DNA of 12,185 nucleotides from a virus (taxonomy: Duplodnaviria; Heunggongvirae; Uroviricota; Caudoviricetes). The notes below the pieces were generated by a model. The model worked only from the letters and a program-made list of their open reading frames with translations, did not search any database and had not been told where the DNA came from. The position numbers were made by a program, and so were the translations under genes. The stretch is from the IMG/VR virus record IMGVR_UViG_2541047898_000011; one strand, given 5' to 3'. Below, piece by piece: positions 1,327 to 5,117 of this stretch; position 1 is the stretch's first letter; every line of letters begins with the position of its first letter.

Positions 1327-1899
1327 TCATAATTCTGTGCTGGTGGCAGGAATTAATTTCTGCCAGATAGCGGAAACATATTTTGCCTGATGACGGGCAT
1401 CAGCCAGGGCGTTGTGCCGTTCGCCATCGAAAGGCATGTCCATTTTGGGGTCGAATCCGATGGAACGCCCAAGCGTAACGATCGTGCGTACATCGTGGTC
1501 ATTCCAGTATGCCCACGGGCAGATTTGTCCTGCTCGCTCATAAGCTCCACGTAAAATTACGTTGTCGAAGGTGGCTCCGTTACCCCAGACTTTTAAATAT
1601 TTCGTATTGTCTGCGTGCCGGTTAATGAAATGATTTAGTTCTGAGAGAGCATCGCGGATCGACAAAGTATCATCAATACAGATTGCAGCTCGTGCTTCAG
1701 GGCTTTGTTTCAACCACCACAGGATGGTATCGCCGTCAGGTGTAGCTCCTTGCCCCATAGCACTTTCCAGGCTAACAACCGTATAGAATTCTTGTCCGAT
1801 GTCTCCGGTTTCTGGAGTGAAGAACACCGCGCCAATGGAAACGATCGGTGCATCCTTATTTTTCCCCATCGTCTCAAGGTCGATCATTAAGTTATTCAT
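1327..1899 (-). CDS. DnaQ-like DEDDh 3'-5' exonuclease
   Basis: 190 aa; Exo I motif MIDLETMG and Exo III motif H..NALADA; strong SD AGGAGGTGA upstream; TAATG stop/start overlap with the upstream gene. Confidence 0.65.
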   Translation of the reverse strand: MNNLMIDLETMGKNKDAPIVSIGAVFFTPETGDIGQEFYTVVSLESAMGQGATPDGDTILWWLKQSPEARAAICIDDTLSIRDALSELNHFINRHADNTKYLKVWGNGATFDNVILRGAYERAGQICPWAYWNDHDVRTIVTLGRSIGFDPKMDMPFDGERHNALADARHQAKYVSAIWQKLIPATSTEL

Positions 1900-2210
1900 T
1901 ACTTCACCTCCTGCGTTTCTTTGCTGCTGTGAATTCGCCAGTTACCGACGTCTTCCCATTCAAACTGGCGGTTACTAATTCGCGTCCAGCCCCTGCCGAA
2001 AAGCAAATCCAGATACCAGTATTTTAAAGTTCTGATAATTGCTCTTACAGTTGGTTTGCATCCAGAAGTCTTTGATGCGCAAATAAAGCACCGAGTTATG
2101 CTCATGGCCTCTACAAAAGGCCAGATAAACCAAACCCAGATGCAAAGAGCCACGAACAACATGAGCGCGATGTTAGCCACTAAGCCAGACCAGTACAGAT
2201 AATTACTCAC
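1899..2210 (-). CDS. Small hydrophobic, probably membrane protein (GTG start)
   Basis: 103 aa with a long hydrophobic stretch LVANIALMLFVALCIWVWFIWPFV; GTG start overlaps the upstream stop (GTGAGTAA); SD AAGAGG. Confidence 0.4.
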   Translation of the reverse strand: MSNYLYWSGLVANIALMLFVALCIWVWFIWPFVEAMSITRCFICASKTSGCKPTVRAIIRTLKYWYLDLLFGRGWTRISNRQFEWEDVGNWRIHSSKETQEVK

Positions 2211-2691
2211 TGGTTGCCTCTTTCATAAAAATAATCCAGTGGGTTTTATCGTTTTTTCCTGTTCGTTGACCGATAACAGGTTTTCTGTCTGTCAGTGCCA
2301 AAATCTGGCTTACCGGTATTTGCGTTTCATTCCATTTAAAAACCAGAACACCGTTTGGCCACAACACACGAAAGGCTTCTTTAAATCCCTGCCGCAAATC
2401 ATCACGCCAGGTATCTTTATTCAGCCGTCCATATTTCTTTCCCATCCAGGCGTTATCACCAACACGCTCAAGATGCGGAGGGTCGAATACAACAACCGGA
2501 AACGATGCGTCTGCAAATGGTAATGCACGAAAATCTGCTATCAGGTCAGGGCTAATTATCAGGCGTCGTCCATCACATAATGTGTGCTCTTCCTTTCTGA
2601 TGTCGCTAAATATCGCCCGGTCGTCATTCTTATCGAACCAGAACATGCGACTGCCACAGCACATGTCGAGGATTGCTGCATGTCCAGTCAC
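2203..2691 (-). CDS. Small SAM-dependent methyltransferase, probable DNA N6-adenine or N4-cytosine type
   Basis: Motif I-like ILDMCCGSRMF and motif IV-like VVVFDPPH; likely start is GTG at 2691 (SD AAGGAGG, 6 nt spacer) overlapping the upstream stop as GTGA; ORF track gives 2203-2724. Confidence 0.5.
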   Translation of the reverse strand: MTGHAAILDMCCGSRMFWFDKNDDRAIFSDIRKEEHTLCDGRRLIISPDLIADFRALPFADASFPVVVFDPPHLERVGDNAWMGKKYGRLNKDTWRDDLRQGFKEAFRVLWPNGVLVFKWNETQIPVSQILALTDRKPVIGQRTGKNDKTHWIIFMKEATSE

Positions 2692-3203
2692 TGGTTGCCT
2701 CCTTTGCGAATCTGCTCCGCCCATTCTTCAAGGGATTTCTCCGCATATTCACCGGACAGGCCATCAATCGGATGCGGTTCATTAGCTAACTCTTCTTTCG
2801 CTGACAGAATCATGCGCGTAACGTCGAAAACTTCACGTAAAGACTTATTGATAAATCCGTGGTTGAAAGCAGCAGCAAGACGACTTGCGGTATAGTTAAT
2901 TCCCTCGTTGCGAGCCTCCGCACGAATTTCAGCCAGAAAAGCATCGGTGGCTGGAATTTGCGGCATACCTCCGCCTGCTGCGCAGATATACGCATCAGAT
3001 ATTTCATCCTGCTCGCCATTAAACACATAGCAACTCTGTACGATAAATTTATTCAGCCGCGCATTCTCCGCCGCCAGCGTCTCGTATTTAGCTTCAAGCG
3101 CGTCGAACTTACGTACTAGGTACTCAGCATTTGTTTCGTTCACTTTCAGATCTCGCGGTACACATTTCCCGCGAAGAAACCCTTCCATTTCGAAAACATT
3201 CAT
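2688..3203 (-). CDS. Hypothetical phage protein
   Basis: ORF 2688-3209; start chosen at 3203 because of an ATGA overlap with the stop of the HD gene; no recognisable motif. Confidence 0.45.
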   Translation of the reverse strand: MNVFEMEGFLRGKCVPRDLKVNETNAEYLVRKFDALEAKYETLAAENARLNKFIVQSCYVFNGEQDEISDAYICAAGGGMPQIPATDAFLAEIRAEARNEGINYTASRLAAAFNHGFINKSLREVFDVTRMILSAKEELANEPHPIDGLSGEYAEKSLEEWAEQIRKGGNQ

Positions 3204-3736
3204 GCGCATTTGCGTAACTCCGATAACTCGTTAAAACGTTCCATAAACATCCCGTAGGCATGGCCTGGTGACAGTGGAATAACTTTGAACATCTCTGTTG
3301 CCGGGATGCCTTCCAGTACAGGCCAGAAAGAGCCATCATCAAGCCCGAGATCGCGGCGTTCGGTTGCCAACATAATGAGATCGGCATATTTCACTGGCGT
3401 GCTCATAACAGGAGGTAACCCGTATTTTTCACGGATTACGGTGTCTATTTTTTCTTCCATCCGTTTATAGTCAGGAAGAAGTCGTTTCAGTGGCGCGGGG
3501 ATGTCCTGGCAATATGCTTCTGTTGCATCATGCATTAACGCTTCAAAAGCAAATTCCTGCGGTACCAGCTGGCTGCAAAGCACCGCATGTTGGGCGACGC
3601 TGTAGAAGTGTGAAAGATGGCCGGCAAAGCGACAGATATTTGAAAGGGAAACCGCGATATCGTTAATAACGATGTCATCTTTATTTATCTTGTCATAATA
3701 AAAATGCTTCCCGGAAAAAGTTTTAATAAATGACAT
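3200..3736 (-). CDS. yfdR: HD-domain phosphohydrolase, YfdR-like (5'-deoxynucleotidase family)
   Basis: H...HD motifs (VAQHAV, ALMHDATE); start at 3736 with SD GGAGAA gives 178 aa, the length I recall for K-12 YfdR; sits next to YfdQ- and YfdP-like genes. Confidence 0.6.
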   Translation of the reverse strand: MSFIKTFSGKHFYYDKINKDDIVINDIAVSLSNICRFAGHLSHFYSVAQHAVLCSQLVPQEFAFEALMHDATEAYCQDIPAPLKRLLPDYKRMEEKIDTVIREKYGLPPVMSTPVKYADLIMLATERRDLGLDDGSFWPVLEGIPATEMFKVIPLSPGHAYGMFMERFNELSELRKCA

Positions 3737-3830
3737 TTCGTTCTCCACTTTATATGCGCTGCACCGCGCTGAATTCGGGTAAAAGGAATCCCGCACCATC
3801 CGGCGATTATTGAGTTAATTACGTTTCCAT

Positions 3831-3852
3831 AAATGCCCCCGCAGGGGCATTT
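3831..3852. other. Stable GC hairpin in the YfdQ-like/HD intergenic region
   Basis: aaatgcccc-cgca-ggggcattt, 9 bp stem with 4 nt loop; no flanking T-run on either strand. Confidence 0.3.
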
Positions 3853-3864
3853 GCAGTAATGAAA

Positions 3865-4689
3865 TCAGGCGGTGAAAGTACCAATAAAAGTTTCTACTTT
3901 GCTGTCTTTGAATTTCTCAACAAGCAGATCACGAAATTCGTTAGCCATTTCTTCCTGCACTGCTTCCAGCTGAATAATGCGCAGAACCAGTACAGGACGA
4001 TCGCCAGTGATAATGCTGAGGCGTAATTTAAACGGACGTTCTTTCAGGCCTTCAAACGGAACGCATTTAAATTCAAATGCCACTGGCATAATGTCTTTGG
4101 TCTTCGCTTCGACAGACTCCATCAGGGAGCGTTTGCCGCTGAAGTCATTGTCTTCAAAATCAGCGGTCTGGTTCGCTTCAATTGTGATTTTACGGATCGC
4201 CGCAGCCGCTTTGGTTGCCTGAATGGCGTCACCATTAGCATCAAAGCCCACAAGGTAGTCGGCCCAGTCTTCAATCCATTCTGCCAGTGACTTTTGGGAG
4301 TTACGCTCGCCATTAACAGACAACAGAGCAGAGAACGGTGCTGTCTTTTTCAGTTTGAGAGTGGCGGTGTTATCTGCGTGACCTGGTTCATCAATAGTAC
4401 CCAGGTTAAGCACACTGACGGCTCGCATATTATCGGCATCGATAAAGCAGCGGGTGCCTTCATCTGCAAGATCTTTAGAATAACGGGTAAAGTCATCGAT
4501 GCTGGCAGTGGAAAGTGCACCACGGAAACGGAAACGATTTAAATTAAATTTTTCCAGATCATGAATGCGGAAATTCTCAGGCAATGCCACAGCATCGGCA
4601 CCAATATTACTGATAATTTCATTAACACCCTGAGCAGAAATAAGGGCATGGATTTGATTAATTGCGGTTGCGTCTAAGTTCTGAGACAT
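3865..4689 (-). CDS. yfdQ: YfdQ-like prophage protein (DUF2303-type)
   Basis: 274 aa, the length I recall for K-12 YfdQ; SD GAGGA upstream; synteny with YfdP-like and YfdR-like genes. Confidence 0.55.
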
Positions 4690-4754
4690 AATAAGTCCTC
4701 ACTATATTAAGATATTCAGTGATGAGATAAATAATCAGTTAATTAAAAACGATA

Positions 4755-5117
4755 TTAACGACCTGCTGCGCGGAGTTTTCCGTCAGGTTCACCGGCAAGA
4801 GTCAGCAACTGTCCCTGGTCTTCCTGCAGAATAGTCAGGCGACCACCGCGATTGACATACATCGGTGTTTCGGTGGTGTCTTCTTCGGAAATTTTCCCGC
4901 GGTTAGTCGGGCGAACATATGAGAGTTTGTGTTTGATTTTCACTCGGTTCTCATCAAACGGTTCGATTTCTAGGTTGAGCGAGACCTTACCTTTGGTTTT
5001 CGTGTTCATCACACCGGAAGCGACTTCACTGAGAACTGCGCCGATTTTGGTTTCAAATACGCCGCCGTCCAGCTCCCCGATAAATGCCTGCACATCAGTA
5101 CTGCGTTCGCTAGCCAT
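4755..5117 (-). CDS. yfdP: YfdP-like prophage protein
   Basis: ORF track 4755-5435, but the real start is most likely ATG at 5117 (MASERSTDV) with SD GAGGAG at 7 nt, giving 120 aa as recalled for K-12 YfdP; the upstream part of the ORF is GC-rich non-coding-looking sequence. Confidence 0.5.
   Translation of the reverse strand: MASERSTDVQAFIGELDGGVFETKIGAVLSEVASGVMNTKTKGKVSLNLEIEPFDENRVKIKHKLSYVRPTNRGKISEEDTTETPMYVNRGGRLTILQEDQGQLLTLAGEPDGKLRAAGR

Follow-up and report, generated by a model that had tools for sequence, protein, structure and literature searches.

The genes at the locus

A 12,185-bp stretch of DNA from IMG/VR virus record IMGVR_UViG_2541047898_000011, hereafter called the window, constitutes the immunity and early region of a lambda-like Escherichia coli prophage. 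The subject of this study is a block of seven leftward genes at positions 1327-5117, which begins with yfdP, yfdQ and yfdR and which had been proposed, from the letters of the sequence alone, to form a nucleotide-pool or anti-defence unit (the original prediction). Direct reading of the DNA places all seven genes on the minus strand at the positions originally assigned, and family searches bore out the gene identifications. The genes, with the excisionase gene that closes the operon, are as follows (protein lengths are given in amino acids, aa).

5117-4755, minus strand: yfdP, 120 aa; PF27127, phrog_204; Shine-Dalgarno sequence GAGGAG
4689-3865, minus strand: yfdQ (DUF2303), 274 aa; PF10065, E=1e-92
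3736-3200, minus strand: yfdR, 178 aa; HD motif; phrog_318, E=3e-111
3203-2688, minus strand: gene for a 171-aa protein; ATGA overlap with yfdR
2691-2203, minus strand: methyltransferase gene, 162 aa; GTG start, GTGA overlap; PADLOC MTase_II, E=5e-74
2210-1899, minus strand: predicted membrane protein gene, 103 aa; 8-nucleotide (nt) overlap (GTGAGTAA); phrog_2531, E=5e-26
1899-1327, minus strand: predicted DEDDh exonuclease gene, 190 aa; TAATG overlap; PF16473, E=4e-75
1290-1018, minus strand: PrtN-family excisionase gene; PF11112, E=4e-24; phrog_1300 'excisionase', E=2.5e-40

Nearly all of the junctions had been described as overlapping stop and start codons, which is a slight overstatement. 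Four of the six internal junctions, those running from yfdR to the exonuclease gene, do overlap (ATGA, GTGA, GTGAGTAA and TAATG), but gaps of 65 nt and 128 nt separate yfdP from yfdQ and yfdQ from yfdR, respectively. The gap between the exonuclease and excisionase genes is 36 nt. Among complete E. coli genomes, the nearest relative shares 99.6% identity across window positions 1000-5303, and there the gene block adjoins a yafO toxin gene and a dusA fragment.

Co-occurrence divides the block into exchangeable modules

Eighty loci with a yfdQ relative, one per bacterial species, were fetched together with 80 viral contigs, and relatives of the window proteins were located in them. A yfdP gene is present in 79 of the 80 species loci, always on the same strand and 360-440 nt upstream of yfdQ, and the one exception is a locus truncated by a contig end. 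This pairing persists at 39-45% identity, as in Marinobacter, Photobacterium and Kistimonas. When relatives from the different species are compared with the window proteins, YfdP identity tracks YfdQ identity (Pearson r=0.81, n=75), whereas YfdR identity does not (r=0.25 against YfdQ). The remaining genes are found less often: yfdR follows the pair in 58 of the 80 loci, the exonuclease gene is present in 25 at variable distance, and the methyltransferase, 171-aa protein and membrane protein genes are present in 6, 2 and 0, respectively.

A similar pattern is evident within E. coli, where we compared 30 prophage contigs whose yfdQ is 99-100% identical and which extend sufficiently far downstream. 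The spacing of yfdP, yfdQ and yfdR is identical in all 30, and 17 of them carry none of the other four genes. Ten contigs carry the exonuclease gene, at distances from yfdQ that range from 2.6 to 5.0 kb; in each of these ten, the excisionase gene lies at a fixed offset of 609 nt from the exonuclease start. Among 5,426 complete E. coli genomes, segments covered to at least 80% were counted: yfdPQR in 2,456 genomes (~45%), the exonuclease-xis segment in 406, and the middle segment (the 171-aa protein, methyltransferase and membrane protein genes) in 10. The block as a whole is covered to at least 80% in 91 of these genomes.

From these tables we conclude that the region consists of three modules joined by mosaic exchange. 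The genes yfdP, yfdQ and yfdR, plus the flanking RNAs described below, form the sole stable unit of the block; the middle genes are sporadic accessory cargo, and the exonuclease gene is a module linked to the excisionase gene. Tight gene packing is usual for phages, and the block is not one machine.

These data bear directly on the proposal that the HD hydrolase, exonuclease and methyltransferase jointly remodel the nucleotide pool or counter host defences. The genes from yfdR to the exonuclease gene are translationally coupled by their overlapping stop and start codons, and orphan methyltransferases commonly protect phage DNA from restriction. By annotation, YfdR-type enzymes dephosphorylate deoxynucleoside monophosphates (dNMPs), and T4 DexA, a relative of the exonuclease, scavenges host DNA into nucleotides (PMC12153337). 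However, a dNMP phosphatase would undo, rather than assist, nucleotide salvage by the exonuclease, and PADLOC offers this idea nothing beyond the methyltransferase. More importantly, lack of co-conservation across related prophages had been named at the outset as the observation that would speak against a single unit, and this is what was found, with the full middle block present in only 10 of the 5,426 genomes. Because its genes are not co-conserved, the single-unit proposal fails, and we now regard a joint function of this kind as very improbable.

Missing recombination genes and the probable class of the lambdoid prophage

The lambda recombination genes exo, bet and gam had been reported as not recognisable, and sequence searches agree. 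Searches of the window by tblastn (E<=1e-4) gave no match to lambda Exo, Bet or Gam, or to RecT, ERF, YqaJ or SSB queries taken from other loci. Likewise, Pfam, PHROGs and NCBIfam models identify no annealing protein, lambda-Exo/YqaJ nuclease, Gam, Abc2 or SSB among the open reading frames (ORFs) at 1018-7118. The window carries the following Chi octamers.

1339, 8359, 10868 (minus strand) and 11764: Chi octamers (GCTGGTGG)

These four sites compare with 0.30 expected in 12,185 bp, a count reached in 0 of 200 shuffles, although the enrichment is measured across 12 kb and not a whole phage, and the class discussed next is defined by at least eight active-orientation sites per genome.

Lambdoid phages that lack a recombination (Rec) module were described as a class in 2025, typified by phage LLS (Genome Res; PMC12315714). 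They make up approximately one fifth of enterobacterial lambdoid phages, are enriched in Chi sites and are helped by host RecBCD (PMC12315714). A yfbR/yfdQ/yfdP cluster is named in LLS, ST64B and phiNP, and also in ArgO145, a phage with a full Rec module; DnaQ-type nucleases occur sporadically near the int end of early-left operons (PMC12315714). The gene block studied here is therefore common, already annotated and discussed in recent literature.

The prophage resembles LLS, ST64B and phiNP in its lambdoid layout and in having an early-left operon without an annealing protein, Rec exonuclease, RecBCD inhibitor or SSB. As in the LLS type, the operon holds a yfbR(yfdR)/yfdQ/yfdP cluster and a DnaQ-type nuclease near its int/xis end; within the 12 kb of the prophage compared, Chi is also over-represented, and the accessory genes differ from those of LLS. 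The block also occupies the leftward early position between the immunity region and xis where lambda has its exo-xis (Red) region (exo, bet, gam, ea22, ea8.5), and shares with that region tight packing and mosaic accessory genes. Unlike lambda, the window holds no homologue of Exo, Bet, Gam or Ea22, and no N-like antiterminator was recognised in it. Given these findings, we favour the interpretation that the block is the distal early-left operon of a Rec-less, Chi-rich lambdoid prophage of the LLS/ST64B type, built as a chain of independently exchangeable modules, and assign it a probability of roughly 0.7.

The YfdP-YfdQ pair

YfdP, YfdQ and YfdR are 98.3%, 99.3% and 97.8% identical, respectively, to the proteins of the E. 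coli K-12 prophage CPS-53, and published work on K-12 therefore applies directly. YfdQ matches PF10065 along residues 7-272 of its 274 residues (310.7 bits; cut-off 26.6). The family comprises 1,779 clusters at 50% identity. Its members have a uniform length of about 265-285 aa, and none of the 150 best-scoring ones listed is a fusion. YfdQ also matches PDB entry 9o7m, 'YfdQ Protein' (profile E=8e-58), a structure with 36 chains whose example chain carries the label C; no paper on this entry was found in the literature searched. The protein in this entry is 98.8% identical to a Xanthomonas phage protein (phages MET23-P3 and Soumapaz). These data suggest that YfdQ probably forms a large homo-oligomer. 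No YfdP-like chain was found in the PDB.

Structure prediction of the two proteins, which had been put forward as a check in the original prediction, was uninformative as to fold: the AlphaFold models of YfdQ (predicted local distance difference test score, pLDDT, 75.8) and YfdP (pLDDT 67.3) matched no solved fold in the PDB. Nor was any relation of YfdP or YfdQ to known annealing proteins, OB folds or nucleases detectable in fold searches. The most conserved segment of YfdP is the C-terminal EEDTTETPMYVNRGGKLTILQEDQGQ at residues 76-106, and residues 90-107 are predicted to be disordered in the monomer model (pLDDT <50). Since this EEDTTETPMYVNRGGKLTILQEDQGQ stretch is conserved yet modelled as disordered, it may be a binding interface that becomes ordered only when a partner is bound.

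In distant lineages, the pair resides within or beside canonical Rec modules. The gene order is YqaJ-YfdP-YfdQ-SSB in Kistimonas, RecT-YqaJ-YfdP-YfdQ in Pontibacterium and ERF-YqaJ-DnaQ-YfdP-YfdQ-SSB in Vibrio phage 75E35.1, and in Xanthomonas phage Soumapaz YfdP-YfdQ is followed by ERF, YqaJ and SSB. This placement argues for a role of the pair in DNA transactions. A separate observation concerns the YqaJ-type exonuclease of the Pontibacterium prophage, whose C-terminal part matches the T7 gp5.9 RecBCD-inhibitor family (PF25708, E=2e-13), and which is therefore predicted to be a nuclease-inhibitor fusion.

One could hypothesize from these contexts that YfdP and YfdQ, with or without YfdR, carry out an unrecognised DNA-transaction function that complements or replaces a Red-type module, for example as a recombination accessory, as an oligomer that binds or protects DNA ends, or as a modulator of host nucleases. 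The pair sits at the position of lambda exo-bet-gam, and in 76 of the 80 yfdQ loci (mostly Enterobacterales) no gene within 8 kb is recognisable as Rec or SSB. Moreover, K-12 cells lacking yfdQ are reported to be more sensitive to methyl methanesulfonate (MMS) and H2O2 (cited in PMC4776307). The 36-chain 9o7m entry, with its example chain C and no YfdP-like counterpart in the PDB, is compatible with a possible nucleoprotein assembly. The pair is also found alongside complete Rec modules, in the distant phages as well as in ArgO145 (PMC12315714), which argues against simple substitution and against a replacement for an annealing protein. In addition, phage LLS has the pair yet grows better with RecBCD (PMC12315714). 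Overall, we consider such a function for YfdP-YfdQ doubtful.

Folded RNAs flank the pair

Three RNA features were identified around yfdP and yfdQ.

5136..5255, minus strand: structured yfdP leader RNA, ~120 nt, with covariation in a 20-genus alignment
3735..3864, minus strand: RNA element of three hairpins, immediately downstream of the yfdQ stop codon and running up to the Shine-Dalgarno sequence of the following gene
5252..5475, minus strand: STnc100-like prophage small RNA (sRNA) gene, below the RF02076 gathering score, with an intrinsic terminator

The yfdP leader consists of a 19-bp long-range closing stem (P1), an inner stem (P2) with an invariant GGCUCAUAACCCAAUC, a variable hairpin, and a hairpin (P5) directly before the Shine-Dalgarno sequence. 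When the 20-genus alignment is analysed with RNAalifold, 38 pairs are predicted, 12 of which show compensatory changes. The paired cells amount to 97.8%, compared with 36-50% in slid controls, and this value was matched in 0 of 500 shuffles. The leader has no Rfam match. Its GGCUCAUAACCCAAUC core holds the sequence CUCAUAA, which is reminiscent of an anticodon loop, but a tRNA reading was rejected because ARAGORN finds no tRNA in the window. A 51-nt stretch of Klebsiella phage Chronis (1501-1551 of the fetched locus) is 82% identical to the leader core; it lies directly next to an annotated tRNA-Asn, within the late region of a phage that is otherwise unrelated.

The second element fills the spacer between yfdQ and yfdR, whose length (128 nt) is conserved. 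A covariance model, R1, built from 22 genera gives one sense-strand match directly after the yfdQ stop codon in about 50 of the 80 species loci, irrespective of which gene comes next. In an alignment of 40 sequences, paired cells make up 98.2% (slid controls, ~45%), and compensatory changes occur in 11 of 18 pairs. The G-U pairs favour the mRNA strand. The evidence rests on covariation, as single-sequence folding is not exceptional (z=-1.39), and no credible Rfam match was obtained. We considered whether the hairpin after yfdQ might be a canonical intrinsic terminator and rejected this, since there is no U-tract and the A/U flanks covary as pairs. Identity with the STnc100 sRNA was likewise rejected: a 19-bit match occurs at this locus and none at other loci, and the reported location of STnc100 beside Fels-1 prophage genes (a 'chaperone' and a hypothetical protein) lends this identity no support.

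Both elements are present in sequenced phages, among them SfV, SfIV, mEp460 and Stx2c phages, and the leader sequence also matches ST64B and phiNP. The simplest readings are that they are processing or stability signals or serve translational control.

The STnc100-like gene lies immediately upstream of the leader. Positions 5252-5475 align with the full RF02076 model at 43.4 bits (gathering score 47; E=3e-8 in a 451-nt search), and the family went unreported in a whole-window Rfam scan at the gathering threshold. Its strong intrinsic terminator, GGCGGTACCAGC...GCTGGTACCGTC followed by CTTTTTAC, precedes the yfdP leader. A 226-aa ORF at 4755-5435 that could be taken for an N-terminally extended yfdP was rejected; the extension is spurious, as it would run through the leader RNA and the sRNA.

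Taken with the protein data, these RNAs allow another, more specific proposal, namely that leader RNA, yfdP, yfdQ and three-hairpin RNA are an undescribed two-protein phage module for DNA or RNA transactions, operating alongside phage Rec functions or host RecBCD. In such a module, YfdQ would be a large nucleic-acid-bound oligomer and YfdP its obligate partner, and the flanking RNAs would be new cis-regulatory, processing or cognate-binding elements. We offer this proposal tentatively, as a possibility that falls well short of an even chance.

YfdR and comparison with CPS-53 of E. coli K-12

When aligned to the HD protein 2gz4, YfdR retains the H...HD motif. Its score against the Pfam YfbR-like model is 24.0 bits, below the cut-off of 25.9, which sets YfdR apart from the YfbR family. 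From its sequence, YfdR is predicted to be an HD-domain phosphohydrolase, a 5'-deoxynucleotidase or dNMP phosphatase, in line with the RefSeq product name of the K-12 orthologue. K-12 YfdR binds DnaA via Phe46 of domain I, and multicopy yfdQ-yfdR plus yfdS or yfdT inhibits initiation at oriC (PMC4776307).

CPS-53 (KplE1; yfdP-yfdQ-yfdR-yfdS-yfdT-ypdJ-torI) has the same order of yfdP, yfdQ and yfdR, the same RNA element between yfdQ and yfdR, and an excisionase gene that ends the operon at the prophage end. Beyond yfdR the two prophages diverge. Where K-12 has yfdS, yfdT and ypdJ, the window encodes a chimeric YfdS-like protein, the methyltransferase, the membrane protein and the DexA-like exonuclease, and the excisionase is of the PrtN family rather than TorI. 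Upstream, CPS-53 lacks both the structured leader and the STnc100-like sRNA, because the upstream side of yfdP is rearranged there.

The middle block and the exonuclease

Residues 1-39 of the 171-aa protein are identical to residues 3-41 of K-12 YfdS, and the two proteins diverge thereafter. The YfdS-type N-terminus and a coiled coil are followed by a different C-terminal domain (phrog_614), and the PHROG matches split between the N- and C-terminal parts; this is a mosaic, YfdS-like protein with a swapped C-terminal domain. An Ea22/Ead identity was rejected, as BLASTP against lambda Ea22 gives E=6.9 and Pfam gives no Ead_Ea22 match.

The methyltransferase carries an ILDMCCGS S-adenosylmethionine-binding motif and a DPPH catalytic motif, both read from the sequence. 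It yields full-length matches to the PADLOC models MTase_II (E=5e-74) and oMTase (E=5e-49), and it also matches phrog_954 'DNA methyltransferase' (E=7e-89). There is no restriction gene next to it, and it is predicted to be a small orphan DNA amino-methyltransferase. The 103-aa protein has one N-terminal hydrophobic segment (Kyte-Doolittle 19-residue peak of 2.51 at residues 11-29) and is a predicted single-pass membrane protein. With PADLOC, the methyltransferase alone is matched (by generic MTase_II and orphan models), aside from a weak match of the exonuclease to a Cas-associated DEDDh model (E=2.8e-5); the other five proteins have no match.

The exonuclease scores 251.8 bits against PF16473 (Rv2179c-like), matches PDB entry 8kel 'Exodeoxyribonuclease' at E=1e-10, and is 29% identical to T4 DexA across 163 aa (BLASTP E=1e-16). 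Candidate catalytic residues D7, E9 and D112 fall in aligned blocks, and H162 and D167 were assigned from the sequence itself (HNALAD). Thus, the protein is most readily classified as a predicted DEDDh 3'-5' DNA exonuclease of the T4 DexA family, even though the Pfam name says 'exoribonuclease'. It is 37 residues shorter than T4 DexA, which belongs to the same DEDDh family and whose catalytic residues and S87, D90 and W152 have retained equivalents in the window protein (S80, D83 and W132 for the last three).

A bacterial DexA variant ('HREX', EcD) without the tetramer-forming Asp90 is reported in a 2025 study to defend against phages with 5-hydroxymethylcytosine (5hmC) DNA (PMC12153337; for DexA and EcD, PDB 8KEL/8KEN). 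This raises the question of whether the window gene is a prophage-borne defence gene of the HREX type, acting on the hydroxymethylcytosine DNA of superinfecting T-even phages. The E. coli homologue EcD sets a precedent, as it cuts 5hmC DNA and protects against T4, and DexA W152, the residue tied to 5hmC recognition (PMC12153337), is kept as W132. The gene also neighbours xis at the end of the prophage, where cargo is commonly found. However, the defence variant is defined by loss of D90, which is substituted in EcD (A78), whereas the window exonuclease keeps S80 as well as D83. Because the D90 equivalent is kept as D83, the protein lies outside the HREX variant. Furthermore, the gene is in a repressed early-left operon with no promoter of its own detected, and an equivalent of D169 could not be aligned. 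We therefore judge a defence role of this type to be quite unlikely.

Other features of the prophage

Outside the block, the immunity region includes the repressor gene listed here.

7118-7810, minus strand: cI-type repressor gene

The window also encodes cro, a cII-like gene, an O-like initiator, PerC, a Dam-type methyltransferase, a LexA-like gene and RusA. Directly left of the cI terminator, at 6630-6851 on the minus strand, is a 73-aa ORF with a ClpX-type C4 zinc-finger motif (NCBIfam ClpX N-terminus, E=5e-6; phrog_5259), which occupies the position of lambda N. The O-like replication initiator (9057-9998, plus strand; phrog_391) includes a low-complexity tract of DPSKSDASKS repeats, and is followed by PerC and not by a P-type, DnaC-type or DnaB-type helicase loader. 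This arrangement may be relevant because YfdR competes with DnaB for DnaA. At the prophage end, outside the excisionase gene, window positions 1-991 (plus strand) encode a 179-aa protein (phrog_8416) and a YafO-family toxin, which look like cargo at the attachment-site end.

Discussion

The arrangement of the block suggests how its parts might act if it is a chain of independent modules in a Rec-less, Chi-rich lambdoid prophage. The first module, in the order leader RNA, yfdP, yfdQ, 3' hairpin RNA and yfdR, would act soon after induction, on host replication or on DNA transactions, an inference drawn from the binding of DnaA by K-12 YfdR and the inhibition of oriC. In the second, the methyltransferase would methylate the phage's own DNA against restriction, and in the third the exonuclease would degrade DNA ends or oligonucleotides. 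For recombination the phage could rely on host RecBCD and its action at Chi sites, a route already proposed for phage LLS.

Besides the 12-kb span of the Chi count, several observations weigh against this interpretation. Deletion of yfdQRST in K-12 gave no replication phenotype, and the authors of that study caution that the inhibition phenotype may be an artefact of over-expression (PMC4776307). The mechanism of the core module is drawn from context alone, because neither YfdP nor YfdQ has a fold match. Finally, translation is tightly coupled from yfdR onward to the exonuclease gene, which could still reflect a co-regulated function in this particular phage.

The new observations concern the pair and its surroundings. 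They are the strict pairing of yfdP with yfdQ (79 of 80 species) across gammaproteobacterial phages, the location of the pair within or beside canonical recombination modules in distant phages, the 36-chain structure of a YfdQ homologue, the sub-threshold STnc100-like sRNA upstream, and two covariation-supported RNA structures that flank the pair in Enterobacterales and match no Rfam family. Set against other genomes, the idea of a seven-gene functional unit breaks down, and what could matter is the yfdP-yfdQ core with its flanking folded RNAs. The YfdP-YfdQ family is carried by nearly half of complete E. coli genomes, by Shiga-toxin phages and by serotype-converting Shigella phages. The Rec-module context, the solved oligomeric structure and the two conserved RNAs provide concrete handles on the function of the pair, which bears on how phages without recombination genes manage host DNA metabolism.

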